Source: Takakia lepidozioides (Eukaryota; Plantae; Bryophyta). Taken from it: a stretch of DNA of 64,000 nt. Location of the stretch: assembly GCA_030704615.1 (NCBI GenBank), contig CM060732.1, forward strand, positions 68,882,001 through 68,946,000. Direction: 5' to 3'. Numbering within the stretch: position 1 is the stretch's first letter; each line of letters opens with the position of its first letter. Shown here piece after piece: positions 31,060 through 60,927 of this stretch. Below the pieces are notes generated by a model. It ran no database searches, was not told the origin of the DNA, and saw only the letters and a list, made by a program, of their open reading frames with translations. Both the position numbers and the translations under genes were made by a program.

Positions 31060-31660
31060 CATGTAATAGAAGCAAGACGTGGGTTATATAACTTATAGAG
31101 AGAAGGGTCAAGACTCAACACACTCTGCTTCAGGATTGTGGCTTTCCATCTCGAAACTTCCATACAACATTGTTGTCATGACAAGTCATTGGGTTGCCAA
31201 AATGTCCGGCCCGGGCTTTGGGGGTTGGAAGAATGCTCTGAACCTGGTCATGTAATAGGAAGCAAACCAAGACAAACCAAGACGTGGGTTTTATATAGAC
31301 AGCAGGGTCAAGACTCAACACACTCTGCTTCAGGATTGTGGCTGTCCATCTCGAAACTTCCATACAACATTGTTGGCATGACAAGTCCACATTGGGTTGC
31401 CAAAATGTCCGGCCCGGGCTTTGGGGGTTGGAAGAATGCTCTGAACCTGGTCATGTAATAGGAAGCAAACCAAGACAAACCAAGACGTGGGTTTTATATA
31501 GACAGCAGGGTCAAGACTCAACACACTCTGCTTCAGGATTGTGGCTGTCCATCTCGAAACTTCCATACAACATTGTTGGCATGACAAGTCCACATTGGGT
31601 TGCCAAAATGTCCGGCCCGGGCTTTGGGGGTTGGAAGAATGCTCTGAACCTGGTCATGTG
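31060..31660. repeat. Tandem array, ~200-203-bp unit x ~3
   Basis: 'agggtcaagactcaacacactctgcttcagg' at 31104, 31304 and 31507; units are nearly identical. Confidence 0.9.
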
Positions 31661-36260: not shown

Positions 36261-36678
36261 ATCCCTTCGCTTCTTTTTCCCCACACATATGCAGCCATCA
36301 CAACCTCCAAACTGTCGGTGGTACCCATTGCCCATTATTTGCTCATAGGTATCCAAAGCCTCCATCCTGTGACCCTGCTGGGCATATCCTGCGATCATCA
36401 CGTTCCATGATATCACATCTTGTGTAGCCATTTATAAAAGTCCACGAGGGTATTGTTCAGAATCACATCTGGTACAATTCCAGCTTTGGCGATGTCACCA
36501 TGCACCTCTTTGCCCTTTTCCAGGGCTGCTAGGCTTGCATAAGCATTGCAAACGCACACAAAACGTGATGTGGTTGCAAATCACCCTTTCCCCCATCAAT
36601 TGCTCATACGTCTCCAAGGCCTCCATCTCGTGCCCCTGCTGTGCATACCCTGCAAGCATCGTGTTCCACGACACCACA

Positions 36679-38935: not shown

Positions 38936-39159
38936 GGCCTCACGACACAGCAAGAACACAGAGCAGGGAGGAGATGGGCACAGCAGAGAAGAGTGAAGAG
39001 CAAAATGAGAGCGAGGCCGGCGGAAGAGGGATATATCATTGTTGCACTGCCAATGTCGTATGCGGAAGAACTTCTATTTCCTCCGACATGTGTGCTTTTA
39101 TTAGACAAATCCGCACCAGTTTCAGGACAGTTTGCAAAACTCCCTCACCGTAAGGCGGG

Positions 39160-39600
39160 TATTTGCTCTCCGGAGCCCAATTTCGCGCGTCGTTATTGAT
39201 TGCACTCCCCAGCCTTCAACCGGGTATTTGGTTTCCGGACCCCAATTTCGGCGCCGTTTTCGGCTGCACTCCGGTGGCTTCAGCCGAGTATTTGGTTTTC
39301 GGGGCCCAATTTCGGCGTCGTTATTGGCTGCACTCCGAAGGCTTCAGCCGGGTATTTGGTTGGCGGAGCCCAATTTCGGCACCGTTATTGGCTTCACTCC
39401 CGAGCCTTCAGCCCGGCTATTTCTTTTCCTCTGCCCAATTACGACACCGTTATACCCAACCATCCTGCACTTCTGCAACAGTACTACCCACGGTTATAGG
39501 TCGTCATTGCGTTTTCGGAGTCTGCAAACCCGGATCCTAATTCCGCTTGCGTCCCTTCGTCTTGGGTAATTTCGGTGCCGTTATTGCCCATAATTCAGTT
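39160..39600. repeat. GC-rich tandem repeat, ~64-bp unit x 5-6 (probable TE subterminal array)
   Basis: 'cccaatttcggc.ccgtt.ttggctgcactcc..ggcttcagccgggtatttggtt' at ~39176, 39241, 39305, 39369 and 39434. Confidence 0.85.
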
Positions 39601-40887: not shown

Positions 40888-41236
40888 TCATCCTGGCACC
40901 ATCTCCTCGTCTGTCTCACCATGCCAACGAGCTCCTGTATCATCATGTTCGCTCGTGCATGGATTACGACTCAACCCATCTGCATCCTGATTGACTATAC
41001 TGGCTCGATGCACCACCTGGAACTCGTACTCTTGAAGCATAAGTGCCCACCGTGCAAGCTTCCCTGTAAGTTTGTCTGACTCCATCAACCGCTTCAATGG
41101 TTGGTGATCCGTGATAAGGGTGAAGAGATTGTCATAGAGGTAGCATCTAAAATGTGCCACTATCCATACTGCAGCTAGACACTCCCCTTCATATGAACTA
41201 TACTTCGCCTCAGCATCATTGTTCGAGCGACCGCAC
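40888..41236 (-). mobile_element. Ty3/gypsy RNase H fragment
   Basis: 'RSNNDAEAKYSSYEGECLAAVW...FRCYLY..FTLITDHQPL...GKLARWALMLQEYEFQVVHR...NQDADGLSR'. Confidence 0.92.
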
Positions 41237-41689
41237 TCCACGACACCACATCTCGTTCAGCCATGGAAACTCCCTTCGCATCCTTAATGCCCACATTTGG
41301 CATACATGTCCACCAGGGGAGTGTTCAGAATGACATCTGGAACAATTCCAGCTTTGACAATGTCACCATGGACCTCTTTCCCCTTTTCCAGAGCTCGCAG
41401 GCTTGGACACGCATTGCATCCTGCCAACATTAAATTCCACGTCATCAAAGATCGTTGAGGCATTATGTTGAACACTTGATGAGCATCAATGATGCTCCCG
41501 CACATAACATACAGGTTGACAAAGGTGTTGAGTAGAAAAACATTTGGCGTGAATCCAATTTGGATAATGTGAGTGTGCAAGGACTTCAACTTGAGAGTTT
41601 CTAATCGGTTTGATGCTATGAATCCATGGGGTAACTGTCCCCCCTTTGCAGAACGGTTGGCCGTCACAAGCTACCTAGACGACAAACAA

Positions 41690-42900
41690 TTCACATGCAA
41701 AGGGCTGGCTTGCAGCTAGCCACTTTCAACTTCTTAGGGTTGACCAACCAAAGGAAACAACTCGAAGTGGGACAAGTTCTTCGGACTAATGATATTCATA
41801 TCTATTCTGGGCAGAAACATGGGAAACGTCGGATAAACTGGTTGGAGATGTCAATGGTTATAAATGGGCAGGTAAGATGTGTACTCTCAAGGCAGCCTCT
41901 GCCAAATGCAGTAAAAAAGGGGCTGGATTCTTTGTCCGTGATTTCTTGTTTGACAATTGTGAAATTATCAACAAGGGTTTGAGGTACGAGCATAGTATCT
42001 GGCTAAAACTGAATCTGAAGGGCGGCTTGAGTACAAAGGGCCTCTTTGTGGGTTGTGTTTACATGCCCACAGAGGGGACCCTTAGTGCTGACGCAGACAA
42101 AGCCTTCGAAGATGTAAAACTGGACTGTGCTTCGTTCCTTGCCAAAGGTCAGGTGGTGCTATTGGGTGACTTCAATGCCCGGGTGGGCAAAGGGCTCCAT
42201 CAGGACGATATCACTGGGCCTTCTGGTGAGGACGAGCTGAATTCTAATGGTAGACGGTTAATTAACTGTCTGGAAGAGCTTCATCTTTTGACCTTGAATA
42301 ACAGGACAAGCGGTGACCAAGTGCAGTGGACTCGTGAGAAATCCCAAACTGGGGAACGTTCCATTGTGGACTATGTCATAATGGACAAAAATTTGTTCCC
42401 CCAGTGTGCCAATGTGTTGATCGACAGAACTGATATTGGTACCTCTGACCACTTCCTGGTTTGGACTGAGATCAAATGGTGTTTTCCCAACACCGGAGTG
42501 AAAGAGATTCTCAAGGACCTGGACCTGGATCCGCAAGTCTTGACCCTGCTGGATAAATTCGACTTAGAGGCTGTAGTGTCCAAAGCCATGTCTGTTGCCA
42601 TGAGATTGTCTGATGAAAATGAAGTTAGGCAGAAAACTTCCCTGAACTTGTTTCCAGTCAATGACATGGGGGAGGACATCATGGATGACCTCAAGGGTCC
42701 ACCCACTCTTGGCACTAGACTGAAATTTAAACTCAGGGCAGGAAGCCTACCTTTGAACATCAAACAGAAGCAGAGAGGAAAGGGAGAGTGCACTTCCCAT
42801 TGTGTGGGCAATCTGAAGACAGTATTCATTTTCTGATACACTGTCCGGGGTTCTCTCATTGATAATAGGTGTACGTTGAAGGTTGCAATGACCAAAAGTG
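41690..42900 (+). mobile_element. Non-LTR retrotransposon (LINE) ORF2 remnant: APE endonuclease joined directly to the C-terminal Cys/His region (RT deleted)
   Basis: 'LATFN..GL', 'VGCVYMP', 'LLGDFNARVG', 'NSNGRRL', 'RSIVDYV', 'SDHFLV', then 'KFKLRAG..PLN....C..C..EDSIHFLIHCP'. A 158-bp copy of 42312-42469 sits at 43033-43190. Confidence 0.85.
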
Positions 42901-44119
42901 CTTCTAATAGAGTCCCACATCAATTCAATCTCAAAGAAGTTTGTCCCTTGACTGGCTGGAGAGCGGTCTTAGACATTGGTGATTCAATGGGGCGCTCTGG
43001 GAAGACAACCAAGGGCAAGGACTTCAACTGTAGGTGACCAAGTGCAGTGGACTCGTGAGAAATCCCAAACTGGGGAACGTTCCATTGTGGACTATATCAT
43101 AATGGACAAAAATTTGTTCCCCTAGTGTGCCAATGTGTTGATCGACAGAACTGATATTGGTACCTCTGACCACTTCCTGGTTTGGACTGACTCAAAAGAG
43201 AACCTCTTGTGTGTGCCTACTTGTGTCTGTAGTCAGGTAACGACGGATTGGTCAGTGAGAACCACCACGGTGCAGCTGAGCACGGCCTGCTAAGACCAAG
43301 CTGACTCTCCCAAGAACCTTATAAACATATGGAAGAATACCAAATCAGGTACTAACAGGAGGCAAGAGCCCGCAATAGCAGGATGGAAAAAATTCTTCAC
43401 ATCGTACCTTAAGAAAACGCCACACCTTGCGATTGCAGTTGTCCCACCATTGTCAATCTTCTAAAAACTCATGTCAGGTCTGCTCAGTGCTGCAAATTCA
43501 GGGCCGACTCTGATGAGAAGGCAAGACAGGCTGAAATAGGTCAAAGAAGAAGGTGCCCTCACCACATTGTTCTTGACCTTGTGTCATGACCCATGGAGGA
43601 TTTGCCCTCCCATCAACCCAAAAGGATCGCTTCAGTGTGCTGTTGGTGTCTGTAGTCAGGTAATGTCGGATTGGTCTTTGAGAAACCACCACAAAATGGC
43701 ATGCTAAGACCAAGCTCACTCTCCCCTAAACCTTGTAAACATCAGGAAGAATACCATGCCCTGTGGAGAGGAGGGGAGAGGAGAGGAGGGAAAAGAGAAA
43801 GCCCGCGGAAGGGAAGGCGAACACGGGAGAGGAGTGGAGAGGAGATAAGAGGAGGAGAGGGAAAAGAGAAAGCCGCGGGAGGGAAGGGGAGAAAGATCGC
43901 GGATAGAAAAAAAAAAAAAAAAAAAAAAAAAAAACAAACAAAAGGATGATCCCGCGGTGCATCGCGGCCTAAACACCACTCTTACCACTACACTACCCCT
44001 TAAAACTCAACAACCCCCTCCTGTAAAATTATATTTAAGGTGTTTTAAACCCCCATCTGTATGTATAATGTTGTACATGGGGGGGTGTAAAATACCCCCT
44101 CCTGTGCACGCACGTGGCT

Positions 44120-47100
44120 GGTACATTTAATGAGGAGTGCACCCCCCAGGATCTGCCATGGTGTTTGCACCCCATGATCCTATGCTCGCCCCCACTCGCT
44201 GCCTCCACCGTCCCAGTTGGCAGAGATGGCGCAATATCCAATGGAAGTGCAGAAGTAGCTACCAATGCTTGCAATCTCTATTGCTCAGCCATGCACAAGC
44301 CAATGACCCATGTCAAGCAATTGAGATCCATTGCCTGACCCAACACCTGGCGTCGTTATGCCTCTGACAGAGCTGGCACAGCTATAGTGCCCGTGGTAAA
44401 TCCCATTGTCCGTTCTCGCTCATCCGCATTGGGCTCCACCAATTGCTGTAGTACACTGTTCCAAATCAACCCAGGACCATTGTCTCGAAAAGCATGAGAT
44501 GATGGAAAGCTCATGAGTGTAAGCAAGGCTGCACATGGTTGCCCCACTCGATTTACCACTGCTAGAGGTGAACGGTCATCATGTCGCACCCTCTATGGTT
44601 GCCTCCCTTGGTCAAAAATGCCCTCAACTATGAGATTGGGTGGCTGTTGAATGGAATCGTATGCTCTCTTGAGCAGCTCTGGTGGTGCAAGATTGGTCCA
44701 CCACAATCGAGGTCGATGCACTCGTGATCCCACCGCTGCTGCATCCAATAGTACCGCCGATCCAATCCAAGACCGCACCTGATGCACACTGGCCATAACC
44801 CTGGCCCGAGAGTCCCCCACAAGAGGAACATTCTCAAAGATATAGGCTAGAGGTTGCACTTGCCTCGTCTGCAAGTCACGCAACACTCTCAACATCTCCC
44901 AAAACAAATGCGATCGTGCATCATGCAAGCCATTCCCATGACCTGCGGGAGAATGTCATTGGCAAGGCCATCCAGCTATCACCAAGTCAATGGCACTATG
45001 CCGGTCCAAATCATCCGCCCCTAGCAAGGTAATGTTTGCTGACAAGGCCTTTTGATACCCTTGAATTGCTGAGAGAGGCAATAACTCAGGATACCGATGT
45101 GTGAGCAAGGCGATGTGGCGCATAAAAATACGCCGGGCTATCTCATCCTTCTCCACATACAAGTACTTGCGTACTTTAATCCCTGCTTGCAACACTCCTG
45201 CAAGCCCAGTGCTCATGCCTCCAAACAAGTCTAACAAACAAATCCCTGAGTCAGGTGGTTGCCAGGTAATGGGCATTGTGTCCAAAAGAGCTAACTGAGG
45301 AGGTCCCGGTGATGTCACTGAACTCCCCTCACTCACCAATGGATAGGCCTCCTGTCATGCTTTGTGCACACACTCGCCTGCTACTCGATGCAAATTCCCA
45401 ACTGTACCCCACAGTGGAATATAAACAGGCACATGAGGAAGCAAATCAGCCTTGTATGCCAATTGTTTGTCCTCATCAGGTGGTGGCCTATCATCTGCAT
45501 GACTATTTCCCTCCAAGAGCTCACCACCCCAAGCCACCACCCTTGAGAATGCAGCCAATGTAGGCATCATGTTCCTATGATCCATCGCTACATTCCCAAT
45601 AAACCGCACTGGGAGCAGTGCACGTCGGGCATCTCTTGACTGCCACTCCGGCCTGTACAATGCCGTTTCCTCCCAAAAATCCAAAGTAAATCCCATGGGG
45701 TACAACACAGCCCCACCAACAAACACATCATAGGACATCGCGTCCGTAACAATGGCTTTAGCTCTCATGACTGAGCCGTCCGTAGGATGATCCGGCTGCA
45801 ATCGAATGATGAGTTCATGGCGTGTAATCCCTCGCGCCTTCTCTGAACCACCCAAAGATGTTTGAATTTGGAAATGGCAAGGCTCCAAATCCGCCTCTGT
45901 AAGGCCCAAGCCTGCAATTGCTGCTCTCCCCAACATCAATGGCTGTGCTCCTGAGTCCAACAAGACCCGCAGTGGCCTATACCTCCTCCCGGTTGGGCAA
46001 CCCAATTGAAACACTACATCCTGATTGTCCACCAGGATTACCCCAGGAGTCACCATGCTGCGCTCAATGGCTGGCCTAGCTGACAACTCCTACAACCTTG
46101 CAGTTACCGCTTGCCATGGCGCAGCTATGGCTGACTTTACCATCAATCCAAAGCATCCATAGACTGCACCTTATCTGTTATCTCCGCATATAGTGCCGAT
46201 GCATCACCACTCTCACAGAGTCTAGCTGCTAGTCTGAGCACAGCAGCTGGCCGAATCCTCAGCATTGCAATGGTCATTGCAGAAAATAATGGAGGTTGGC
46301 AAACTGCCGTGGCCGCCCCCAACAATGTACTAGCTACACCTTGCTTTGCAGCACCACCCACTGGCATTTACCGAGCCACACCAACTCTCCCCAATGACAC
46401 TCGTGGCTCTACCTCTGACACACTTGGGCGAGCGGGTGCCATTGATGGCGTAGGTGGCACTGTCTCAGCCAATGTAAAGGACTGTGGAAGCCTTGTCTGA
46501 CGACTTATTTCCCCCCTTTGTGGATCAAAATCCACATCCGCTCCTCTTGGCTCAGGAGCACGCGTTGCTGCTCGAGTGACAGCAGCAGCAGAGTCTAATA
46601 CATGCAATGGCCCTGCAAGTGCGGCTCCACACATGAAGCCCATACCAATCTGATCTTCCCTAGGCATAGGAGGTTGTGCAAGTGGGGCTTGAATCTCAAG
46701 CCTTGGAGTTGGCGCAACATGAGTAGTGGCCATGGCAGAAAGACATTACTCTAGCTGGGCAAGTTTATCCACCATGCCTTGGTTATGATCTTGATCCTGA
46801 CCCTGTGCTCCTTGGTTTTGGTTACAACCTCCACCCCGACCTCTGCCTCCTCTACCTCTCTGGACTACATTGCCTCGTCCTCGGCCACCATTGTTCCCTT
46901 AGAACTGGCCTGGCTGTAGCTCAGGATGCAAGCCATAATAATGGGCCTCCTCATGCCCATACTTTCAACAATGCCCACACTGTAGTTGTGTAGGCTGTGC
47001 CTGTGCCGGCCCTTTGTCTCTCTCCGGGCAATCCTTCTTGACATGAGGTCCTCCACAATCCCAACAATCACACCTGACTGTTGTTGGCCTGAGAATGAAG

Positions 47101-48170
47101 GAAAAGACCTCTGCATTTGAGATCCTCTCTGTCTTTCCCTCGGCTTCACCTGAGCCCCCTTGCTGCCTTGAACACGTTGGGATAGTGGTTGTTGTTGGCT
47201 AGGAGCCCCACTTCATTGTGTCTCCTTGCCAAACCCCACCATAACCACTCGCTCCTCCACCATATTGAGCTCTATCCACTCTACCAGCAAAAATACATTT
47301 GCTAAGGTGGGTTGATCCACTTGCAGGAGAGTTGCATCCCGCACCCTTTTCCTCAGCTCCTTGTCCAGGATCCCATACCAGAACTGGACTGCCTGAGCTT
47401 CTGTAATCCCTTGGGTTACGTTTATCAAGCGCCTCATGCGAGTGTAAGTCTCCCTAAAACTCTCAGTAGACCTTTGTTGGAACTCTTGCAAGCTCCGCAA
47501 CTTCTCTGTCCTTATCCCTTGGTAGTTTCTCCTGGCTTCAACTCCTCGAAGAACTCCACAACTGGGTTAAAGGCAGGCACGGGTGTTGGTGCTGCAGCAG
47601 GAACTTGAGTGGATTTCCCAGCTCCTGAACCATTTGTCCCAATACTAGTGCTTGCAGTTGGAGATGTTTGTGTAGCTGTTGGTGTCGCCGCTGCCCTTGT
47701 GCCTCTAGTGAGAGAGACATAGTTAGGTGACCATTACTCTCGCCACTCCTCAATATCTACCGCATGACCCCGCCTAAATTCATGGTAATCATCCATGGGT
47801 GGCCCTTCAAGGTGCTGGAATAGCCCCTTCCACACCATAAAGGGCGTAAACAGTTGTGGATTGCGGATTTGTTACAAATCACACCAACTGTCAAACTCTT
47901 GTATGAAGTCATCAAGTTCGATGGTGCCCACAGCTCCATAGTACCTACGTGGCCCCTTGGTAGCTCCATACATCTCCTCCATTGTGTCCCACAACAATGG
48001 CACGGAAATGACTTGCACCCTCAGCGAGAATCCTCCTGACTCCAAGTCTGAACCTTCTTCAGAAGACACTGAAGGTGAAGGTGGCCTAAACCGCACACCT
48101 CGTCTTGTGTACCCACTAGTATCGCTGGTGCTCGTACCGGCACTCCCCTCAGCAACTGGTGGCACCTCCG
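44120..48170 (-). mobile_element. Degenerate Ty3/gypsy LTR retrotransposon internal region: gag (CA, zinc knuckles) - aspartic protease - C5 DNA methyltransferase; truncated before RT
   Basis: Gag 'IELDDFIQEFDSWC', 'FQQRSTESFRETYTRMRRL...AVQFWYG'; knuckle 'CWDCGGPHVKKDC' at ~47020-47065; protease 'VLLDSGAQ'; DNMT motifs follow in the same frame. Confidence 0.85.
44300..45246 (-). pseudogene. Cytosine-5 DNA methyltransferase domain within the retrotransposon pol frame (in-frame stops)
   Basis: Motif I 'LLDLFGGMSTG', II 'YLYVEKD', IV 'VIAGWPCQ', VI 'YIFENV', VIII 'HRPRLWWTN', IX 'ERERTMGF', X 'RRQVLGQAMD'. Confidence 0.92.
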
Positions 48171-49489
48171 TGATGAAAACTCACAACCCAACCAGTTGTC
48201 AACCTGTCTCTAATCCCCACTTTCCACAAGGTAACCGGGTAGAGAATCTGTTGCGGCTACTGGTTCAAGCAAGAATAATAGGTTTCTAACGTAGACCTGT
48301 ACCTGCACCTGCATCCACAGCAAGCACTCCTATGACCCAGCCTCACTATAGAAGAAACACTGGTGGTCTTGCTGGTCATCACTCCAGCCTCACCACCGAC
48401 AACATACTCTAGGATTGGCCGGTGATCAAATCCAGACCAACCTCATATGAAAACAAGCGCCCACACAAAGCTAACATGGCGCACAGTCAAGCATGCAGGT
48501 GTGGAGGGGATCCAAACACAAGAAAATCAAGACAGCAACTCCCCCACACCAAAAACACTCCACAGTGTCGCTCCTGCAAGGACACCCCAGCCCAAACCCG
48601 GACTGACTCTTGCCTCCACCTACGGAAAGGTTTTGGCCTACAGAGATGGTGAAAGACTATGGAGAAGAAAAACTAAAGCAATTCCTAACCCAAGAATGCT
48701 CATCCCACCACTCTCCCTCCTGTCTCTATCCATTCGCTTGTATGGCCGTGGCAAGTATCCTTCAAATATCCCTCAATCAATCCTTCAAGAGCTCTTTAAC
48801 ATTGTCCACCAAAGCTCCTCGAAGGGTCCTCTAATACTCCTCCAAGGACCCCAAAGATCCTCCAAACAATCCTCCAAGGACCCCAAAGATCCTCAAACAC
48901 TCCTCCAAGGGCCCTCAAATATCTTCCAAACAATCCTCCAAAGGCCCTTAAATTTCACTAAGTCCTTTCAATGTTGATACCTTAACATAGGTATAGTCTG
49001 AGGTTGCTAGGGTCTTTTATGTTGATGATACCTTTATAGAGGTATAGTCTGAAAATGAGGGTTCTGTTTGGTATACTAACAGAGATATAGTCTGAGCTGA
49101 TTAGGGTCCACATATGGTGATACCTCAACAGAGGTATAGTTCATGCAGCCTAGAAGCAATTGTACCTGTACTCCATGCCGGGTCTTGGTGCAGATTATGA
49201 GTGCACTTTGAGGATCAAAGACTGACATACACCCTAGGTAGAAACCGAAGTGATTCCCAATATCCGGCAAGTTAACCAAGTATTGATCCGGGATGTAAGG
49301 ATTGAAATTATTCTGAGCCCATCTCTTACCATTTCGGTTTCCCATTTTGGAGGACTAGGGGAAGATGTTCACATTGAACCCTTCTCTATGAGGATCAAAC
49401 AATAGAGCTTGAGCAGCTGCCTCCTTCGTTTCAAACACAATTTCCAAAAGATGGATGGACCTTGTAAATAAAAAGCTTATTAAAAAAAA

Positions 49490-49645
49490 AGGTGAACGTT
49501 ACCAAAGCAAGGCAAGCGTAACTTATGGTGTAGTTTAGCTCAAAGGGCTACTACTGCCTTTATGACACCCACAACCGTTGTGGTTTGAACCCACAACCAT
49601 TAGTGAGACGTGCTTGTGCCTCTAAACACTCCCGGGCTAAACGTG
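49490..49645 (-). mobile_element. SINE family A copy
   Basis: Minus strand: 'TAGCCCGGGAGTGTTTAG'...'GGTTCAAACC'...'caccataagttacgcttgc...ttcacctttttttt'. Confidence 0.7.
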
Positions 49646-49661
49646 GGTTGTGCATTACAGG

Positions 49662-49905
49662 TTAGCAGTCCGTCCGTCCTGTCCTCATCTTCCGTCCGCA
49701 GGCCGTCCGTCCCAGTTTGACAGCCCGTCCGTCCCGTCCCCATTTAGCAGTCCGTCCGTCCTGTCCTCGTCTTCCGTCCGCAGGCTGTCCGTCCCAATTT
49801 GACAGTCCGTCCGGCCCGTCCACATTTAGCAGTCCGTCCGTCCTGTCCTCGTCTTCCGTCCACAGGCCGTCCGTCCCACTTTGACAGTCCGTCCGTCCCG
49901 TCCCC
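49662..49905. repeat. Minisatellite, 82-bp unit x3, built from (CGTC)n
   Basis: 'ttagcagtccgtccgtcctgtcctc' at 49662, 49744 and 49826. Confidence 0.9.
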
Positions 49906-51072
49906 AAGGTCACGGGTTTTGCAACCGGAGGGGGTTTACCGTTCGAGGGAGCGCGTGACGGCCTCCGTCGCAGCTCCCTCGGATTCACAGCCTTTGGAGC
50001 GTTCGCAGTGTAATATTCTCTCTCACTGTCTCTGTTTTTGCTATAAATGTTCTAAGTAGGCGCTGAAAGAAGGATCCAGGAGCAATAGATCAAGAGATTC
50101 TCCAGAGAAATTGAGACGGCAGAGAAAGAAGAAAGATAGGACGAGAGAGTAGAGAGCTGGACTGCATCAGAACCTCAGATTGTCAGTCGGATGAAGAGAA
50201 GGTTGACGGGTAGTTAGGAGCTTCTGGGTAGACCTGGAGGTAAGTTTGAATCGTGGGGGTATGAACGAATGGAGGAGCGTGTGGGACGCAGAGGCAAATA
50301 AATCATTTGTAGGTGAATCCTTGTAGGCACTGGACTGATGACATTCTACTCCTAGCACGACTCTTAGACACCCTGAGGACGGATTAGACAGCAAACTCCC
50401 TTCACTGGAAACCGACCTGGAAGGCAGGCAGACATCTGCGAATTTGTCCTCTGTTCACGCTTCTCGTGTAAACTGCTCCCCCTTCTGGTTTGGTCTCCTT
50501 TTTGTATTTGTTACATTCTCTGTGGTTTATCGGCATTATGTTTGGAGACATGATTTGGTGGGAGCATTTTTTTTCCCAGCTTGTAATACTCATGACAGGC
50601 TTTTTGACTCACGCCATAATGTAATTTTTTCAGTCGCTGCAGGGGTGCTCTTACTCCCGAAAAGGTGATGCTAGACATCATGGGCAAGTCGAAGGGGAAA
50701 AACTATTGAGGTCTGATTGCAATTCTTCTCATTTTGCGACTCTTTTTGTGTTGTAGAATCCTACTTATGGATATTGGGCTATTTTTGTGGGTTACATGCA
50801 GAGCAAGGGATGGGTGTTCCTTAGCTTTCCCTTGTTAAGGGGTTCTGAACTGTAGACTGTGGTTGTGGTACAAGCTCCTGCAAAGCCTGAAAAGACGTCA
50901 GGCGCTTTTCGGATCCAAGGACCCACTTGTGAAGCTTGTAATAATGAAGAATAGCTTGAAATTCCCCAACTCCAGAATGTATGCTGTCAATACTGCTTTG
51001 GCTCTCTTACGTCCGAGTTGGTGGTCTTTCCTAGTGACAGTTCCGCCTATAGAAGCAATCGTTGAGTTCCAA

Positions 51073-54000
51073 ATGGCTTGTGCGTTGTGCACTCGCATCT
51101 GCTATGACACTCATGGAGATCGTGACCAAGCTAAGGTCCAACAATTTCTAGGAGCTCCATCTTTCTTCAAGCTGGTTGCCGACAAAAAAATACACACCAA
51201 CGGCTTCTTTCTGGTAATACCTTGCCCCAGCCTCTACCAATCTTTGAATTGGCTGAGATTTTAACTTGTGACGATATACCATTCTTTGTTGGAGACAAAT
51301 CCTGAGAAAGAAGAGAGAAAGAAAAAAAGAAAGATCTTTATTATTTCCACAGAGCTTCATACCATTCAGAGAGCCCAGAGAAAATGGAAGATAGACGGGA
51401 ACTGAATGAGAAAGGAATAGAGAAAAACTTACCCAAGGCCCAACGGCCCATAGGACAAAATCAGAGAGGAAAGCTCAAAGAGCTTATGGGACAAAGGGAG
51501 AGCATAATACAGTGTCATACAACATTCTCTCAGGAAGTGTCAAATGATTCTTAACGGATATGGTCTTTCACAAGTAAACATTCTAGCAGGATTGCAAGGT
51601 GTAGAGACAATCATAGTCCCCCATTGACTATAGACTATGGGCTTGTTGGGGCTCTAACAGACCTGTAGCACACCGGAGGTCCTAAACATTTGTGTTTGAG
51701 TATGCTGTTAAGTATATCTTGTAAGTAGATTCTGGGTTTGTCACAGCGGATCCCTCCTAGGTTCATGGAGGCCTACGGCTACAGGATTAAAGATACAGTT
51801 TCCCTGAGAGGGCCAACTGGCTATGTTTGCGAGCTTCGTCTGGGATATGACAAAGGATTGGGCTTCAGGGCAGGTTTTGGGGAATTTTTGGCCTACCATA
51901 GCATCGAGACAGGAGATCACATTCTTTTCACACTCATTGCAAACTCACAGTTTGCTGTCAAAGTGTACGGCAAGTTTGGTTGTGAGAAAGTTATCCCTCC
52001 AGTGACTAATCCTAACAACCACAGGGGGAGGGTCTACATAGATTCTAAGCCTAGCATGGAGGCCGTCATACCTTCCCCACACAATGATCATGACGGCCTC
52101 CTTGCTAGGCCCAGCATCTACACACCGAGCAATGTTCTTCATACTAGCTCTCTGTTTCCCAGACCGCACACCAATCACCAGTCTGGGAAACAGAGTGTTA
52201 ATCTGAAGAACATTGCTTCATGCATGAAAGTCCTGAGGAAGAGAGGTCATGCTGCCAAGCTAGGGCAGAACCTCAAGCACAGGAGGGAAGAAGAGGGCGA
52301 CGAGCACCTGCTGAGACTGGAAGATGAGGGCATGATCAAAGCTGGACATGGAAACGTCTGGGTTGGGAGAAAGGGAGACGATAAAGGGAAAAGAGGCTTT
52401 TCAATGCTAGAACAATCCTCGTCGCCATTACCTATCTCAAAAATGGCAAGGAAGGGCGTGATCTCACAGCAAGCTGGAGAGCATGACAACCTGGAAATGC
52501 GAGAGGGAGGACTGAACTATGTATTCCCACAGGTGCAGCCAAAGAGGGCTGAAGCTGACCCAGAAGCTCTGGCTCGTCATACTGAGCAGGATTCACTGAC
52601 CCCACAGCGATTTGCAAACCCTGAAAGGTGTTTGAGTCCAGAATCCAAGAGACGAAGTGCTGAGATAGAGGACCTCATTGACATTGGAGCTGATTTTGGG
52701 AGTAGCAGAGGATTGAGGCAACCTGAGCACGATTCTGAGGTCAGCCTAGAAGTTGATGAAAATCAAACTGTCATTAATTCATTAATTCTGTCAAATCCAC
52801 CATTATCCTATGTGCTGCATGTTTCTTGGCAACCAAGTTAGCAGTGCTGCTGGAGGTGTTCTCCTTAAGCAGATTTTAAATATAGTGTACATAAGCAAAA
52901 CTTGCCAACAAAGGCTCTGATTACCAGTACCAAGACCCCGAGTGCCAGAATTCCAACTTTATTTACAATATTTGATTAGAGTGTAGATGTATTCAGTCAT
53001 CAAATAGTTCTCATAGACCATGGCTGGTGCTCTCAAACAGGTTCCTGGAGTTCTGCTGCCAGCATCAAGGACAGAAGTGTCTCCAAAGGTTCCAGCAGGT
53101 AACAGGGTGAAGGCTCTTGAGGCCGCACGTGCACATACGACCAGTAACCCAAGTGTTATTCTCATCATGACCAAGACTTACACCAGCGGCTTCCTGGTGA
53201 GTAAATAATCTTTTGTACAAGTAGAACAGGGAGCAGAGCAACTACACCTGAATTATGTACAACACAGGTCCCAGTGCTCAAGTGACCCTCATTAGTAACT
53301 GACAAAACACCTGGGCTGCATTTTGATATGGTCAGTGCATGAGACATGAATGTGGCAAGAACTGAGAGCCTTATACTGAATTGAGTGGGTGGGAGTTGCC
53401 AGCTGGACCATGCATAAGTATGCATGCCACAAATTCCCTGACCATTAGGCATTTGGTTCAGGCTTGACGAAATTCAAAAGTTTATCCTTGTTATCACATT
53501 ACAGTCCCATTTCACCACAACATGATGAATGGAAGTTGTGACTCAATCGTAATAGATGATGTAAAAGAAGTAACCCATGCTGATCCAAAATACTTTTCAA
53601 AATCTACTGCTAACTTGTGTGGCATGTTGGGCCTCTTGCTTTTTAGCACTTTCCAGCAGCTTTTGCGAAAAAATGGTTCCCCCAAGCAAACACAGAATTA
53701 CTGCTGGTGGACACTGCTGGCAAGCATTGGCCTGTGATTTGGTATCCAAATCATTCGCATACGCGTCTAAATGTTGGGTGGAGGCAGTTTTCTCAAGCAC
53801 AGAACCTCAAAGAAGGCGATGTTTGTGTTTTTGAGCTGAGAAATCCAATCAGGATCACATTTGTGGTTCACATCTTCAGAGTGGTTAATTCTGCCTGTAT
53901 TGGGAATGAAGGCCATAGCCATGAGCAGGCAGTTATTGGCAGGGTACGGCTTGAGGGATACTGCAGTGGGAACTGTGGAAATGGTATAGTGCAATCAACT

Positions 54001-56964
54001 AATATACTTGATGAGAAGGACTCTAGACTCTCAGGGAAGAGTTCGAATGTTGACAAGTGGACCAAGCCCAGTACCTCCAAGAAGGATGCCAGCATTTCTC
54101 CGGAGCATGCAGCAGGAGTGGCCAGCAAGAGTGGGAGGTCTTGCAACCCCGGAGAGGATGTGTGTAGATCGATAGCACCAAACTCTCCAATTAAGTCCAT
54201 AACGGCAGCCCAGTTCTATGCAGGCCAGAGAGGCATGGTGGTTAATGTTTTGGCAGCGGAAGAAAAGAGCCAAGAGGAAAGTAAAGGTGATAGCGCGGAA
54301 GGTATGGATCCATCATGGATTATCATGCTTGTCAATATAATTAGATTTTTGATTGGGAATGGACAAGTTTGAGTTCTCTCTCTTTCATGTGCAGAAAGAG
54401 GACCAGCTTTGGTGCAACAGCAAGGAACTGCAGCTAGTGAGAGGAAAAGGAGATTTCACAAGATTTCTCAAGGGCGTCAGTCCACAAATAGTATGAGGCA
54501 GAAAGCCCTGGATGCTGCAAATGCACTTCAGACAAGCAACCCACACATTGCACTTGTCATGAAACCCTCACATGTCGGCGCTGGGTTTTCTGTTGTAAGT
54601 GGAATACTCCTGGCGTTCTGCGGTGTTGTGAAGAGATACAATAGTGAAGAGATGGTGGGGAGAGGGTTGTAAATTATAGGTAAAGAGATGAGAAATTGGG
54701 GTGACTAGCATTTCTAATGATCCAAGTTAGTGGGATGTTTTGTATGAAACGTTGCTCTAGGAAGGGTCAATGTCCTTCGCTTCGACCCTCCAGAGAGCTG
54801 CCAGTGAAGGAACTGTGAACTATGTATTGCTAACAGGTTTCATGGTCACTGTGGGGCTATGAATTTGCAGCAACTAACCCTTGATGAGGCTCCTGAACCT
54901 ATTGACCTTCTCAGGAACTTCGTTGCCAGAGTAGTAACTAGTAACACTGAAGTTGGTGTGTTTTTGCAGTTTTTGCCAGGGACATTTATGACTCCAGACA
55001 AGAGCATGAATGTGACCCTGGTGGACTCTTCAGGCAAATCGTGGTCAGCCAGATGGGTAGTGACCGCAGTAGGGAAGCGTTTGAGTGCAGGGTGGAGGAG
55101 GTTTGCGAAGGACCATTTCCTTCAAGCAGGCGATGTTTGTGTTTTTGAGATGATTGATTTAAGAAACCTAATAATCTTCGTTCATGTTTTCCGGGTTTGG
55201 AAAGATGGAATTTGTGATGGCAACCAAACAGTGAGTGAATATGGCCGGGCAACCAAAAGAAGAGGGAAGCTTCCGCAGAGTCTGGCATTCAGGTCTCATA
55301 GAGGCCCTGTAACAGAGGCAGAAAGGATGAGCGCAGAGCAGGCTGCACGTGCACTCGAGATTCAGAATCCAAGTTTTAGAGTCACGTTGCGAAAGTCAGC
55401 TGTGGAGTGTCATTTTTTTGTTGTGAGTTGCTCTTACTCCTGAGTTCCTCTTTTTGACTTTGTTTCTTTACAAGGAATGCTTGATGCTATGTGGAAGCAC
55501 ACACATATACCCAGGACTGTTTCTTGTAAGCATACTGGCAAACAGAGAGGTATTGGCTGCCTGGCCCTAGGCCCATGGACAGCAAATGGGGCAGGGGCAG
55601 GGCATGGAGGGAGGGAGGGAGAGAATAGCATTCAGGCTATCACCATACAGAATTGGGACCCATCTTGTCCATTCATGTGATTCAGCTGTCCTTAAAGAAG
55701 CATTCGTTTGATCCAAAGTACCTAGATGTGTACCCAAGGCAGGTCAGAATTTTGGGCACTACTGGAGACATGGACAAGGAAAGGGAAAATGAGAGAAAAT
55801 TCCTGGAGAGAAATTGTGTACTTTGCATAACATGGAGTTTTCTGACTTCCATTGCAGTCAATACCGATGGTATTTGCAAATCAATGGCTACCCCGCAGGC
55901 GTGTGAGGGTCTCTCTCGCAGACTCTACTGGCCAGTCATGGACTGCCACCTGGGCTGGGCAATACAAGAGAGGACGTACCTTGAGAGGCGGCTGGAAGAA
56001 ATTTGCCTCCCATCACTGCCTGGAGGAGGGGGATGTCTGTGTGTTTGAGCTCATCAACCCTAAAAAGCTGGCCTTCTTGGTTCATATTTTCCCAGTTGAA
56101 AACCGGAATACTACGACGGAATCTCCCTTGCAGGGCATCGCTTCAGGGCAGCTGCTTTCCAGGATACAACTCAGGGACAGTGCCCAGGAAGGTCAAGAAC
56201 CGAAAGCCAAACCACATCCATGTGCCCCGCTTTCAAGGAAGAATCATGGAAGAGGGGACTCGCCTACACCAGCTATAGAAGGGAATAGAGGTGTACAAGA
56301 CATGACTATATCCAGGCCTGGAAGACACGCGAGAAAGATTTCCAGGAAAGCCATTTACTTGGCGATTCGGAAATCATTGGCCACCACTCACCGACAGAGC
56401 AAGACTGCACTAGTGCATACAACTGCCCCAGCAGTGGAAGCTAGGAACACTAACGCAAGATTCCCGGGCCAAGAAATGTCCTCTAAACTTTCATCCAAAA
56501 ATGACTCCTCTGTCTCTCACAGGGACAGTGCACAGATCGAGAAACATTCTCCACCTTCCTATGGGATAATCCTCACTGTGGATCCAGCCATGGAGTGCAC
56601 TGAGATGAATGCAGGATCCCCGCAACAAGAATTATTGGCTAAGCAGGAAGAAAGTGCATCATTGTCCAAAAGAGTTCAGAGAATTAAAACAGCAGTGGAG
56701 ACTAGTGAGGCTGATACGAGGACCCTGATGCCCTTTCACCACGGGCGAGTTTCCCCCAAACATCATCCAACCCCCTCTGAAAAGGACAGCGTAGAGATGG
56801 AGAAAGGTTTTTCACCTTCCTTAGTTCGGGTGCCTAAAATTGAGCCAGCCATGGAGTGTAATGAGAAACATGTGAGACCCCTGGGACCGGATTTATCCAC
56901 TCAAGTGGAAGTTGGCATGTCTGTCGGTTACATGCCCTCCGGCAGACAGATCCCTGGGTTCTGA
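51073..56964 (+). CDS. REM-family multi-B3 protein with four B3 domains; probable join(51073..51213,51747..52739,53017..53196,53647..54301,54395..54594,54970..55422,55858..56964)
   Basis: Four B3 units: 'PSFFKL|RIPPRF..GFGEF..IETGDHILFTL', 'GWRQFSQAQNLKEGDVCVFEL', 'GWRRFAKDHFLQAGDVCVFEM', 'GWKKFASHHCLEEGDVCVFEL'. GT-AG junctions are in frame; the 3' end is uncertain. Confidence 0.85.
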
Positions 56965-57884
56965 AATGTCCTCTCACCTCAAGCAATCTACGTTCTGCAC
57001 AAAGATCAAGAAGGAATCTACAGCTTCCCCTGTCATGTCCGAGAATGGAACAGCCATGGAGTCCAGTGAGATTAATCTCAGGCCCCTGGGGCGATAATCG
57101 ACCTCTCAGCTTGAACAATCTGCTTGTGGAAGAGTGCATAAAACCACAGGTATGCACTGGAACAGCAGAGGATAGCTGTGTGTATATAAGCAGGGCAGGA
57201 GAGACTTTGCAAGATCCATTGTGGGAGGCTCGTGTAAGGTCCTTCGTAAAAACCTGGCTGAAAATTCCTTGACTCCTTCCTGTCTGGAAAACCAATGTGG
57301 CAGATTGCATGTTTTTACCCCAGGAATATTATGTTCCAGTTTTTGCCCTGATCATTGGCATAATTGGCCTCATTCTGGCACTTCCTGCCCCCCTGTGATC
57401 CCAGCCTGGGGCCATGATTCTCAAATCTGAGAAAACACTTGTGCAGGAACTTTACCTCTTACAGATAATGAACAAAATCATGCAATGGTAGATCCATTCT
57501 TTTGTATCTAACTGGCTAACAGCACCTAAAAATACAATTCGCGAAACTGTTTTCCCAAAGAACTGCTTCACACAACTTCTCATACTTTTTGAAATGAATC
57601 TGTAGCTGCATTTGTTGGGCAGCTCCAAAGTACTTACTAAACAATAATAACAAATCTTCCCAACCCCCTCTTTCCTGGGTTTCACTATTAAAGGCCAAAG
57701 AATCCAAGTGGGTTGTAAGCTGTAGTGGGTAGCGTGATGGTAAAGTGATAGCATTGCAGGCGGTGGGGTTCTCGGTTTGATTCTTGATGGGAGGTTCTTG
57801 TAGTGTAACCCAGGTATCTCATGTAACTCTGGATATCCCATTTTATACTTAGCCAAACTTGGACTTAGTCAAATTTCGAGACCA

Positions 57885-58075
57885 AGTGTGAGTTACACTC
57901 CATTCAGGGTAATCCCGAGTGGAGTTACGCACCTCGTCGTGTAACCCAATGTAACCCCAATTGGAGTGTAACACTCCATTCAGTGTAACCCGGAGTGGAG
58001 TTATGCACCTCGTAGTGTAACCGAATGTAACCCCGAGTGGAGTTATGCACCTCGTCGCGTAACCCAATGTAACCA
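57885..58075. repeat. Short tandem/palindromic repeat array (GTAACCC / GGAGTTA motifs), likely TE-derived
   Basis: 'ccgagtggagtta.gcacctcgt.g.gtaaccc' occurs three times. Confidence 0.7.
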
Positions 58076-58179
58076 TGACTGCACTCCTTCAGATCCATGT
58101 CACTCTCAAGAGAGGGTGGGGAAGATTTGACATGCCCAAAACCAGTGTACCAGGTTGCACGTGTGCATTAAGTTCTTAC

Positions 58180-58362
58180 TTGGTAGGCCAGTGGTTGGGT
58201 GTTTGTGCCTTGCCTGTGCATAACCTAGGTGATCCTGGGTTCAATCCTTCCACATGTGCCTTCAGACCCTCCATTGGGCCCTAGATGGCCTGTGTGTTGA
58301 GCATTAGGCTTTGTAAATTCACTGGACGTTAAGAAAATTTATCTTTATCTTATCTTTATCTT
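58180..58362 (+). mobile_element. tRNA-derived SINE family B
   Basis: A-box 'TAGGCCAGTGG', B-box 'GGTTCAATCC', (TTTATC)n tail; second copy at 59690. Confidence 0.72.
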
Positions 58363-58447
58363 CCACCTGATAGAGGGTAATTTTTAGTTTTAACTGCATT
58401 TGAACTTAGGGCTCAAATCCTTTGAGCCCCAAATTTCGCACAGTTTG

Positions 58448-58614
58448 TGCTGCCACATGGAGCGTCTACAACCGTTGAAACGGGGACATTTGGACAGATC
58501 TGCAAGCTTTTCTCCAAGAGAAAGGGAGAAAGTGGGCCGTTGACCTATAACCAAGCCTTGCAGACTGTCCAAATGTCCCCGTTTCAACGGCTGTAGACGC
58601 TCCATGTGGCAGCA
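58448..58614. repeat. Near-perfect inverted repeat (~58-bp arms, ~50-nt spacer)
   Basis: 'tgctgccacatggagcgtctacaaccgttgaaacggggacatttggacag' pairs with 'ctgtccaaatgtccccgtttcaacggctgtagacgctccatgtggcagca'. Confidence 0.9.
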
Positions 58615-59689
58615 AAGAAACCCAGCCTCCTCTCCCATCCCTCCACGTTACCCTTTCACATGCAACATACCATCCAATCAGCTGTGTGTTAAGTGCTCTC
58701 ACACGTGTGGGAAGATCCAACGTGCTAAAATCCCTTTTATGTACTTCCTAATTATTGACAAATCTCACGGCCCATTTGCCAGGCCTGCAGGGATTAAATG
58801 AGCCAGTACCCCAAATTTAACAAGGGAGGGTACCATTATTTAATACGTGCACTCTCTCATTGGCCTATTGTTTTTGGCTCCTGGCTGGCCTATCAGGAAG
58901 ATCAATTGGTGACTTTGTGCCATGTGATCTCGAACCGGTGGCTAACTTGTCAAGAATGTTTGATGAGTTTTATGCGAACTCAACTCATGTAGTGTTCTGT
59001 TTGTGGGAGCGACAAGGGAGGTAATTTTTTCTAAGTAACAACGACACTGCGTATTGCAAAGCCTAGCACAACTGTGTCACATGGATACAATCCATCGACA
59101 AATATGTCTAATCTTGTCCAAGATCAGCAACTCTCCTCAAAGCCTCATGTGCCGGTGCAAGTCTGCTTAAATCAAGTCTGCGTAAATGGAGGTGCATGCC
59201 ACGGATACTAGGCGGGTCTGCGAAACCTAAATGAGAGTTCCCTCCTTGCGCTAGTAGGGGGGTAGGGTTTCTAGAAATCGATACGCAAGATCATCTGGAT
59301 CTAACGAACCCAAATGGCATGTGGACCTTTTCCTGTGCGACAGTTGTACAGGCGACGTCCTCATTGCAGCGACATGATGGCATTAGGGAGGGCAGTAATG
59401 CGAAACAGAGCCATATTTTAACCCATAATTCCTTTGTAAATTTCGTGAGGCCAATTTCTGGATTGAAAAGTGGCGAAATTTCGCGCGCATAAAAAAAACG
59501 CTGCTCATGAGTCAAGCAAAATTTGGACCCAATATTTAATCCAATGTCGCGTGTGAGAGAGTACTAACCAACAATGAAACCATAGCACAAAGGGCAAGGC
59601 GGCAGGATTTTGAGCCCCACACCACGGGGTGACACAGTGTGCACAGTCTTGTTTTTGTTGCCTTCCTGGGTTCAAACCTCACTACAAAT

Positions 59690-59845
59690 AGGTAGCCCGG
59701 TGGTTGGGTATTTGTCCCTTGCCTGTGCATAACCTGGGTGATCCTATGTTCAATCCTTCAACATGTGCCTTCAACCGTCCATCGGCACCTTCATGGGCTG
59801 TGTGTTGAGCAGTAGGCTTGGTAAACTCCTTGGACGTTGAACAAA
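59690..59845 (+). mobile_element. tRNA-derived SINE family B, second copy
   Basis: 'gtagcccggtggttggg...cttgcctgtgcataacct.ggtgatcct..gttcaatcc...ggacgtt'. Confidence 0.7.
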
Positions 59846-60549
59846 AGTAACCTGCCAAGGAAGTATAAGTATAAATTGTTGGGTGTGGTTATAATCTTCT
59901 CCCCCTTCCCATGAGCGGTGTCCCATGAGCCTTGTGCTCACCGCCTCGTGGCAAAGCTTACTTTGAAAGAGCTTATTTTCGCCTCACGATAATTAAGAGG
60001 CCTGATTTGCGAGCGGCGGGGTGTTTCCCTTTTTTTGTTGGCTCTCTCTTGTATAGAGAGACTTTGCAGTTACATGTTGAAGTCAATGGAGAAAATGTGG
60101 TGAAAGGACCTTACACCGTGTCAAGGCGCTCATTGGTGTGTTGTGCTGAGTCATGCTCCCTAGTCTTACCTTCCTCTTATGTTGTGCCAAAGCAAAGCAA
60201 GAGAGGCCGTTTGAGGCTTGTTTTAAGAACATGGAGATGTATGAAAGAGCTGAACCATGGTTGTGTGTAAGTAACTGTGGCTAACAGGTAGCTAACTGGG
60301 GGCAGACTATAAACCCAAATTATAAATGAGGTCACTCTCATCACAGGAAAAAGCTGGCTGGAGGAGAGAGACAGAAAGAGTATAATACACTAAAATACAA
60401 ACATGGTTAATTGAATATTGTACCGCTCTGCCGCCACCTCCGTTTCATCCATCGTCGGGGGCTGCTCAACGGAGGTATATGTCTCTCGAACTACTCTGGT
60501 CTGCCTCGTCTTCCTCCCACTGCGCTCTCTCTCGACTTGTGGCTCCCGT

Positions 60550-60800
60550 TTCTCTCTCAGGTGTGCATGCAAACCTTGTCTTTTGATTTTGGTCCCTGAT
60601 GCTGTTGATGTAGAGGAATTGCAGGTCCTTGTGTGTCGTATGTTTAGTTTTGGAAATGTGCTTTTCAAATAGCTCTGTTTCTACAGATTTCTCTCTCAGG
60701 TGTGCATGCAAACCTTGTCTTTTGATTCTGGTCCCTGACCCTGTTGATGTAGAGGAATTGCAGGTCCTTGTGTGTCTTACTGATTTAGTTTTGGGAATGT
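60550..60800. repeat. Tandem duplication, ~139-bp unit x2
   Basis: 'tctctctcaggtgtgcatgcaaaccttgtcttttgatt' at ~60551 and ~60690. Confidence 0.85.
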
Positions 60801-60927
60801 GCATTTCACACAGCTCTCATTCTACATTAAACCCAAGAATCTGTAGAAGTTGGAAGTGCAGTTTTCTGTTTGAGATGGCTGCTTTGAAAAATGTTGTGTA
60901 AACTGTAACAATGGCAGTGATCTGGAA

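Follow-up and report, generated by a model that had tools for sequence, protein, structure and literature searches.

A decayed Ty3/gypsy-type retrotransposon with a DNMT3-like methyltransferase in Takakia lepidozioides and its relatives in bryophytes

The C5-methyltransferase (MTase) found in the analysed stretch of Takakia lepidozioides DNA (64,000 nucleotides, hereafter the window) lies in a dead, doubly truncated Ty3/gypsy-type element, which as a relic is ordinary. Its relatives almost certainly form a family of Ty3/gypsy-type retrotransposons with the plan gag-PR-DNMT, stop, RT-RH-INT-PHD. Active members likely package the DNMT in their particle, where it would methylate the element's own cDNA before insertion. 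The kind is already known (KnitGypsy-Dnmt3, 2018); added here are a conserved stop behind the DNMT in a readthrough context, and, from full-length copies, split repeats, an internal junction that is palindromic, and target duplications of 4 bp. The stop, split repeats and target duplication are known from the relatives and are absent in the window copy itself.

The copy in the window

Three-frame translation and tblastn of homologues placed gag, protease and a complete C5-methyltransferase in succession on the minus strand, to which all features below belong; the gag, zinc knuckles, protease and MTase motifs claimed by the initial annotation were all located. The gag region (47,000-48,180) is broken by frameshifts and stops: up to the protease the frame runs -2, -1, -3 and then -2, which makes three changes. 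It is 57-58% identical to residues 1-298 of Marchantia P0003 (tblastn, split over two frames), and its Retrotrans_gag match is weak and under the cut-off. Two zinc knuckles are seen in the translation (46,940-47,066): a good one, CWDCGGPHVKKDC, at 47,066-47,028 and a degenerate second from 46,979. The aspartic protease (approximately 45,590-46,089; Asp_protease_2, E 0.012) has the active site LLDSGA at 45,963-45,946, which is common to the homologues.

The DNMT3-like MTase domain (44,281-45,240) is in the protease frame and contains motifs I to X unpermuted. In translation these are motif I DLFGGMSTG (45,231-45,205), II YLYVE (45,165), IV GWPCQ (44,973-44,959), VI FENV (44,838), VIII HRPRLWW (44,718), IX ERERTMGF (44,421) and X GQAMD (44,340). 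Four stops interrupt the PR-MTase frame (45,357, 44,958, 44,595 and 44,358), three of them internal to the MTase, and a further one follows just past it at 44,280; the five ORF starts named earlier (46,086, 45,339, 44,928, 44,589 and 44,274) do share this one frame. With stops read as X, the domain scores 47 bits against Pfam PF00145 (cut-off 22) and shares 67% identity with Marchantia Mp_4g09160 (E 3e-143), and is therefore not a chance match. CpG depletion is not diagnostic, since the values of the window copy (0.42) and of four relatives (0.28-0.70) lie inside the range across the window (0.18-0.84).

Behind the DNMT only a short tail is left (44,128-44,280), the element being broken off ahead of the conserved stop and RT. 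Similarity to homologues (P0003/P0005 alignment) stops at 44,128, and contig depth falls in the bin 43,840-44,173. No RT or integrase was found at this DNMT by tblastn of homologues, self-comparison of the window gave no terminal repeat pair around the element, and the copy showed neither a terminal repeat nor a B/A junction nor a primer site; GACA-nn-TGTC occurs once, at 33,601, a distant match that was taken as chance. The missing RT, integrase and terminal repeats were not mentioned in the initial annotation. At the other side, contig depth marks a multi-copy 5' non-coding region (48,181-49,140): summed depth is high to 49,145 and about 1000-fold lower past there, and other contigs diverge beyond 49,140, where the region is cut off. 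By its position it is probably the leader and part of the 5' repeat of the MTase element. One run guessed to be RNA yielded contigs of relatives only, which has no bearing on expression.

An isolated RNase H fragment (40,894-41,244; Pfam RT_RNaseH, E 7.7e-21) lies 2.9 kb downstream of the element. Its best matches are L004 (79%), P0150 (73%) and P0006 (71%), with at most 57% for the RH-DNMT-INT type, and by this similarity it is assigned to the DNMT-carrying retrotransposon family; it may be part of the same insertion or of a second copy.

Family distribution and architecture

Named homologues of the window MTase are found in Marchantia, Riccia, Calypogeia and Sphagnum, including the Marchantia polymorpha copies Mp_4g09160, Mp_8g17980 and Mp_6g11220; none of the named protein matches is from Klebsormidium. 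Named chlorophyte proteins have a second architecture, in which a related DNMT lies between RH and INT. Of the earlier suggestion of a streptophyte lineage that reached the bryophytes, the presence in several bryophyte genera is borne out; the wider family extends beyond streptophytes, as chlorophyte proteins carry the related DNMT.

The loci surveyed were the best 80 of 277 confirmed, and related loci share the plan given above. Of the 53 loci whose downstream DNA extends to 1.2 kb or more, 47 have RT no farther than 3 kb behind the DNMT; of the 26 with 4 kb or more, all 26 have integrase no farther than 5 kb behind it. Neither these nor the other locus counts below are independent, because a single subfamily supplies most of the loci and several insertions are represented twice. 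The initial annotation had staked its reading on such linkage to RT and integrase, and its view of the MTase as a polyprotein domain after PR is borne out by relatives that join the MTase to RT, RH and INT. As for its place where RT would follow, the DNMT does come after PR; it closes the first ORF, and RT stands behind a conserved in-frame stop. The relatives have gag, PR and RT-RH-INT in the order of Ty3/gypsy elements, and the window copy retains gag, PR and the detached RH. Matches to rve and H2C2 (Pfam) identify a DDE integrase in the relatives. The open frames of L020 comprise 1369 and 1047 codons and those of L081 at least 1162 and 1047 codons, with one TAG between them in each case.

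Outside eukaryotes, none of the 31 pattern matches in viral contigs was related to the family, and among ten listed of 471 matches, phage methylases were only 23-27% identical to its DNMT. Just one of 14 pattern matches in prokaryote genomes was related: L081, found complete on a contig of 9.3 kb in a cyanobacterial MAG, which we read as eukaryotic contamination. Its overlapping ends were not counted as evidence of a DNA circle, since an assembler yields such ends from collapsed repeats.

Type, fold and selection of the DNMT domain

The family DNMT ranks DNMT3A first by profile (100 bits), followed by DRM2-type enzymes (50-59), M.HhaI (41) and DNMT2 (32); there is no DNMT1, MET1 or CMT entry among the 57 family-profile matches. 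The structure predicted for the DNMT of an intact homologue has a pLDDT of 97, and all 29 matches listed for this model are DNMT3A, B or C (best TM 0.74). By profile and predicted fold the domain is classed as DNMT3-like. Of the initial description as DNMT3- or bacterial-like and not MET1/CMT/DRM, the DNMT3 part stands and the bacterial part is weaker (100 vs 41 bits).

Host MET1, CMT and DRM enzymes are marked by BAH or chromodomain companions, or by permuted motifs (DRM). The family DNMT is intronless and lies within a polyprotein; its motifs are ordered I-X, the host-type profiles score lower or nil, and no BAH or chromodomain was found in the family proteins (Pfam). Among 42 PR-DNMT-type proteins, the ENV-type motif is present in 41 and HRxR in 39, and the strict G[WFY]PC pattern in just 29, some of the gene models in the set being gapped. 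The domain is under purifying selection: dN/dS is 0.10-0.12 among L020, L022 and L038 (L020/L038 0.12, dS 0.26; L020/L022 0.11) and 0.6-1.0 among decayed sister copies.

Split repeats and target duplications

Four distinct full-length insertions of relatives have the repeat layout A-coding-PPT-B-A-B, and three of these four show 4-bp target duplications and TGTC...GACA ends. The B/A junction is GACA-nn-TGTC or a decayed form of it at all seven loci holding the junction, and it reads so again in L020, L022 and L081. No tRNA-type primer site (TGG...) was found after repeat A in the five loci inspected. With a DDE integrase, TG...CA termini and target-site duplication the relatives agree with Ty3/gypsy elements; the usual arrangement of a single LTR at either end is absent, so that a Gypsy protein set is combined with non-canonical repeats. 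DIRS/PAT elements have a tyrosine recombinase and lack integrase and target duplication; membership there was rejected, as DDE integrase and duplications are present and the ORFs of L020 gave no recombinase match. A DDE integrase in an element with split repeats, an internal junction palindrome and target duplications suggests that integration proceeds through an unusual intermediate.

The stop codon between DNMT and RT

Of 50 loci, 49 have an in-frame stop at the same place after the DNMT (TAG in 34, TAA in 15), and in 45 loci CAR-YY follows directly; the background for such a context is 289 of 35,521 stop triplets. Outside the Sphagnum-like subfamily there are five loci (L004, L020, L022, L038 and L081), and every one of them has TAG-CAR-YYA; the Sphagnum-like context is CAA-CCC, then ATG, one base off the TMV consensus. 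No strong RNA structure was found 3' of the stop in five loci (z -2.0 to +0.5), and the more distant PR-DNMT-RT relatives P0171, P0340 and P0364 are without the stop. UAG-CAR-YYA is described as the TMV-type readthrough consensus of plant RNA viruses (PMC3159437, PMC2754532). The likeness is that an identical hexamer follows the UAG dividing an upstream product from the polymerase; the difference is that readthrough has been shown in the viruses, whereas the family offers a sequence match.

On this context, the Pol of the family is probably made by stop-codon readthrough. Reinitiation at a nearby ATG, or translation from a spliced or shorter RNA, is considered unlikely. Most Sphagnum-like loci do have an ATG two codons past the stop, and Marchantia gene models splice DNMT to RT by prediction or end after the DNMT; however, the five loci outside that subfamily lack such an ATG and preserve CAR-YYA exactly despite diverged flanking protein, and 39 of 50 loci have RT in frame with the DNMT, which argues against both routes.

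Proposed mechanism and alternative readings

In active members, occasional readthrough of UAG-CAR-YY would supply RT-RH-INT-PHD; readthrough being rare, protease and DNMT would be made at the level of Gag, in excess over RT and integrase. The protease would free the DNMT within the particle, where new cDNA would be the sole DNA. The cDNA may pass via a circular or end-joined form, whose palindromic GACA-nn-TGTC junction the integrase would open to give A-coding-B-A-B, and the methyl mark may aid the copy, e.g. by resembling host chromatin or shielding it from nuclease. Motifs and modelled fold incline us, with some reserve, towards a DNMT that is catalytically active on its own cDNA. Only tentatively do we suggest a broader reading: an old green-lineage clade of integrase retrotransposons would replicate in a manner different from that of normal LTR elements, possibly combining a leaky-stop DNMT3 at Gag stoichiometry, in-particle cDNA methylation and a self-encoded palindromic end-to-end junction cut by a DDE integrase; its presence in Marchantia and Sphagnum would have escaped notice because split repeats are missed by LTR finders.

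The same element could use its DNMT elsewhere than on particle cDNA: its target might be host chromatin or integrated copies inside the nucleus, or the element's RNA, or the domain might serve Gag as a non-catalytic component that binds DNA or is structural. Fused to Gag ahead of the stop, the DNMT is probably abundant, like structural proteins, which would suit such a role; moreover, no methylation was obtained in yeast with the Gypsy DNMT of Klebsormidium, a result its authors call inconclusive, and de Mendoza et al. themselves name methylation of RNA and a benefit to the host among the options (PMC5890265). We hold this rather improbable, as catalytic motifs are retained in most members, the predicted fold is that of a complete DNMT3-type domain and, for the RNA option, the DNMT2 (RNA) profile scores far lower. 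A one-off capture of a host methyltransferase (MET1, CMT, DRM or host DNMT3), or a host pseudogene beside a gag remnant, would explain a window copy without RT behind its DNMT, and the placement of DNMT3 ahead of host types is a ranking by similarity. It is nevertheless highly improbable, being already contradicted by the DNMT-RT/INT linkage in relatives. There are 226 clusters (50% identity) matching the family at E < 1e-30, the long members examined all being retroelement-like; PR-DNMT-type elements form a clade (support 0.99) both in the DNMT tree and in an RT tree of family members only; and the domain has no introns and, unlike DRM, no permutation.

The question of why a retrotransposon keeps an enzyme that normally silences it dates from 2018 and has persisted because its known hosts lend themselves poorly to genetics; the Marchantia polymorpha copies and the intact natural elements L020 and L081 open it to experiment. 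In annotations of bryophytes and algae, the number of DNMT genes is also inflated by this family.

Comparison with known DNMT-bearing elements

Plant Ty3/gypsy elements of REXdb share PR-RT-RH-INT, the polypurine tract and TG/CA ends with the present family, whose 4-bp duplication is within their known range (PMC6317226); the family differs in having no terminal LTR pair, and the relevant text of Neumann et al. 2019 (PMC6317226) mentions no methyltransferase, PHD or Marchantia. REXdb elements were collected by LTR-FINDER (PMC6317226), which requires a terminal LTR pair and would probably miss the split-repeat layout. EpiLTRs/DAM-LTRs (Fernandez-Moreno et al., bioRxiv 10.64898/2026.05.21.726589) are likewise of LTR class with methyltransferases and a chromatin reader, but their DNMT is a DNMT4-sister accompanied by an adenine methylase and a chromodomain; it is stated there to be distinct from streptophyte Gypsy-DNMT3, and that text mentions neither bryophytes, Marchantia and Sphagnum included, nor land plants.

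SymbioDIRS-Dnmt3 and SymbioLINE-Dnmt of Symbiodinium are also retrotransposons bearing a C5 MTase, the former with split repeats and de novo CG methylation in yeast; two dinoflagellate retrotransposon DNMT3s gave CG methylation there (de Mendoza et al. 2018, PMC5890265). They have a tyrosine recombinase or are LINEs, whereas the present family combines a DDE integrase with TG...CA ends and target duplications.

The closest known system is KnitGypsy-Dnmt3 of Klebsormidium nitens, a Gypsy with a DNMT3-related domain (de Mendoza et al. 2018, PMC5890265). Our searches gave no literature report of this Gypsy-DNMT3 kind from land plants, and descriptions of it from algae only. The family has its traits: an intronless, unpermuted domain, split repeats (in the relatives) and purifying selection. 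Both have the Gypsy domain set with an unrearranged DNMT3-related polyprotein domain, a DNMT under purifying selection, and DIRS-like repeats (Fig. 4 legend), defined for DIRS in that paper as A-coding-B-A-B; the likeness is to the published description. The passages on KnitGypsy-Dnmt3 do not mention a post-DNMT stop, a junction palindrome, 4-bp duplications or a PHD finger, and the present family differs in its presence in land plants and in its second architecture in chlorophytes.

State of the window copy

Translation and alignment to homologues confirm what the initial annotation had read on the minus strand at about 48,180-44,130: gag, decayed but with zinc knuckles, followed by a protease and a complete C5 methyltransferase (MTase) domain. 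The frame it described as common to protease and MTase and broken by stops is also recovered, with stops at 45,357, 44,958, 44,595 and 44,358; the alignment adds three frame changes within gag. With stops read as X, the MTase passes on Pfam PF00145 (47 bits). Homology to relatives runs out near 44,128, beyond which lie unrelated DNA, an opposite-strand LINE fragment and an RNase H (RH) piece (41,244-40,894) whose best matches are members of the same DNMT-bearing family. No repeat pair around the element was found by self-comparison of the window, and the copy is cut at both ends. In run X1 the summed contig depth is 7e4 to 6e5 over 44,174-49,183 versus 56-93 over 49,518-50,500 (contigs from four runs were covered; depth does not equal copy number). 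The high-depth edge is at 49,140, past which other contigs diverge in sequence. The 44,174-49,183 region clearly exists as a repeat in many copies in the host genome, and the window copy is a real, dead member of a genuine DNMT3-bearing Gypsy family.

The LINE-like fragment between the DNMT and the RH piece (41,793-43,935, plus strand; endonuclease domain PF14529, E 3e-08) carries two copies of a 158-bp segment (42,312-42,469 and 43,033-43,190), with a poly(A) stretch near 43,905-43,935. A PPR-like fragment (41,287-41,670, minus strand) has high summed depth, is highly repeated in the genome and has a second copy at 36,434-36,550; it may have been carried as a PPR piece within a mobile element. 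Further ORFs in the window, four with B3 domains plus a B-box and a GT8, agree with a plant host. The B3-domain run (51,729-61,930, plus strand; five Pfam matches at 51.7, 53.6, 54.8, 55.8 and 61.1 kb) resembles REM-type genes. At 1-3,940 (plus strand) an ORF resembling a SWIM zinc finger, together with two long ORFs that match nothing in Pfam, perhaps represents a MULE-type transposon region. Short tandem arrays are found at 30,987-31,659 (203-bp unit), 39,153-39,453 (64 bp) and 49,662-49,906 (82 bp).

Enzyme type and selection

The intact domain of the metagenome locus L020 has DNMT3A, DNMT3C and DNMT3B as its top matches (35 bits). The family profile scores 100 bits for DNMT3A, 50-59 for DRM2-type, 41 for M.HhaI and 32 for DNMT2, with no DNMT1-type entry among its 57 matches. 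Concerning the earlier description of MTase motifs VIII and X as DNMT3/bacterial-like, the first half stands and the bacterial half is the weaker match. An AlphaFold model of the domain, built from 89 sequences, has a pLDDT of 97, and DNMT3 occupies all 29 Foldseek rows listed (TM up to 0.74). DNMT dN/dS is 0.10-0.12 among L020, L022 and L038, 0.6-1.0 among decayed sister copies, and 0.05-0.15 between the window copy and its relatives, where dS is near or at saturation.

Distribution of relatives

The MTase family was matched by 26 of 4138 candidate proteins of 1057-3015 aa, including nine named Marchantia polymorpha models (56-67% identity) and one from Sphagnum fallax, and by 151 of 8000 shorter proteins; Calypogeia fissa, Sphagnum troendelagicum, Marchantia paleacea and Riccia sorocarpa are named among the 120 listed shorter matches. 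The 50%-representative library gave 226 matches below 1e-30 (150 listed). A profile search matched 157 of 7985 proteins, and the 120 listed include Monoraphidium neglectum, Scenedesmus sp. and Chrzof1 (presumably the genome code of Chromochloris zofingiensis), all three with the DNMT between RH and integrase (INT). P0025, P0174, P0315 and about 120 other proteins make up a sizeable sister group, associated with chlorophytes, that has RT-RH-DNMT-INT-PHD in a single ORF; no description of this group was found in the available text of the literature on such elements. The whole locus L081 and the protein P0046 are placed in cyanobacterial genome bins and annotated as bacterial methyltransferases, which is likely eukaryotic contamination.

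Architecture and trees

The loci analysed were the best 80 of 277 confirmed metagenome stretches, and their domain order is gag-PR-DNMT-RT-RH-INT-PHD. The initial annotation had proposed linkage of MTase homologues to RT and INT as a test, and the relatives are so linked: among 53 loci with enough downstream sequence, 47 have RT less than 3 kb past the DNMT, and an integrase follows in all 26 that extend for at least 4 kb, counts that are not independent since some loci are duplicates and 31 of 74 have at least 80% identity to a Sphagnum protein. Of the six loci without RT there, three do have INT or PHD behind the DNMT. L020 and L081 each keep an intact Pol frame and a long frame for gag-PR-DNMT.

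The DNMT tree (117 domains, FastTree, midpoint root) left out short domains (below 270 aa) and those whose architecture is unknown, apart from five retained manually. It sets proteins with the DNMT behind the protease (PR-DNMT type) apart from the RH-DNMT-INT type (support 0.997), and the window copy clusters with Marchantia, Calypogeia and Sphagnum (1.0). Paired RT and DNMT trees of 51 elements, for which 41 of 120 RH-DNMT-INT-type proteins were sampled, both recover the PR-DNMT type as a clade (0.99); in the RT tree this clade sits within the RH-DNMT-INT type. The patristic distances correlate at 0.55. The trees suggest that the DNMT domain may have relocated once, the root not being independent.

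Repeats and target sites

The longer loci (31 of 80) were compared with themselves. The split layout A (about 340 bp)-coding-B (113 bp)-A-B is found in L037, L042, L047, L062 and L075, and part of it in L050 and L060; L042 and L047, with flanks in common, were counted once. Full-length relatives end in TGTC...GACA, and three of four distinct insertions have a 4-bp target duplication (TCTC, CATA, AAGG); in the fourth the 5' end is eroded. All 8 loci inspected have a purine run ahead of B. Where the internal B|A junction is present (7 loci), it always reads GACA-nn-TGTC, intact or decayed, and the divergent L020, L022 and L081 repeat it as GACA-G(C/T)-TGTC. Upstream of a 5' A, no B was found. 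End joining would give two tandem B-A units, so the layout would agree with integration through cleavage of a single B|A junction.

A conserved stop after the DNMT

Translation from DNMT to RT in 50 loci places a stop at a constant position between them; RT shares the DNMT frame in 39, and the remainder have indels. The stop is TAG or TAA in 49 of 50 loci, followed by CAR-YY in 45 and TAA-YY in 4, a pattern picked after inspection of the translations; as background, CAR-YY follows 289 of 35,521 stop triplets in the loci. All five loci outside the Sphagnum-like subfamily have exactly TAG-CAR-YYA, the TMV readthrough consensus according to the available text of PMC3159437 and PMC2754532. Against a readthrough reading count the CAA-CCC-ATG context of the Sphagnum-like subfamily, the lack of strong RNA structure downstream of the stop in the loci folded, and a single continuous frame without the stop in three distant relatives.

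Comparison with known systems

The available text of de Mendoza et al. 2018 (PMC5890265) describes KnitGypsy-Dnmt3, a Klebsormidium nitens Gypsy element whose repeats are DIRS-like, and regards it as acquired in the K. nitens lineage; it has 0 mentions of Marchantia. Both PMC12344493 and a 2026 preprint (bioRxiv 10.64898/2026.05.21.726589) cite that paper as 'streptophytes', naming no land plant in the parts available, and those of PMC6317226 and PMC9033089 do not mention a retrotransposon DNMT domain. For bryophytes, the literature search, which took in neither subscription journals nor figures nor bioRxiv supplements, found no report of DNMT-bearing elements; bryophytes could be present in the supplement trees. 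What is new relative to the literature text available is the hosts (land plants and chlorophytes), the occurrence of the DNMT at two positions, the stop of readthrough type, and the anatomy of the junctions and target sites. Judged from sequence, the family of the window copy would work like KnitGypsy-Dnmt3, to which it is likened by three features rather than by tree, namely an unpermuted DNMT3 domain, split repeats and purifying selection, and it has all three.
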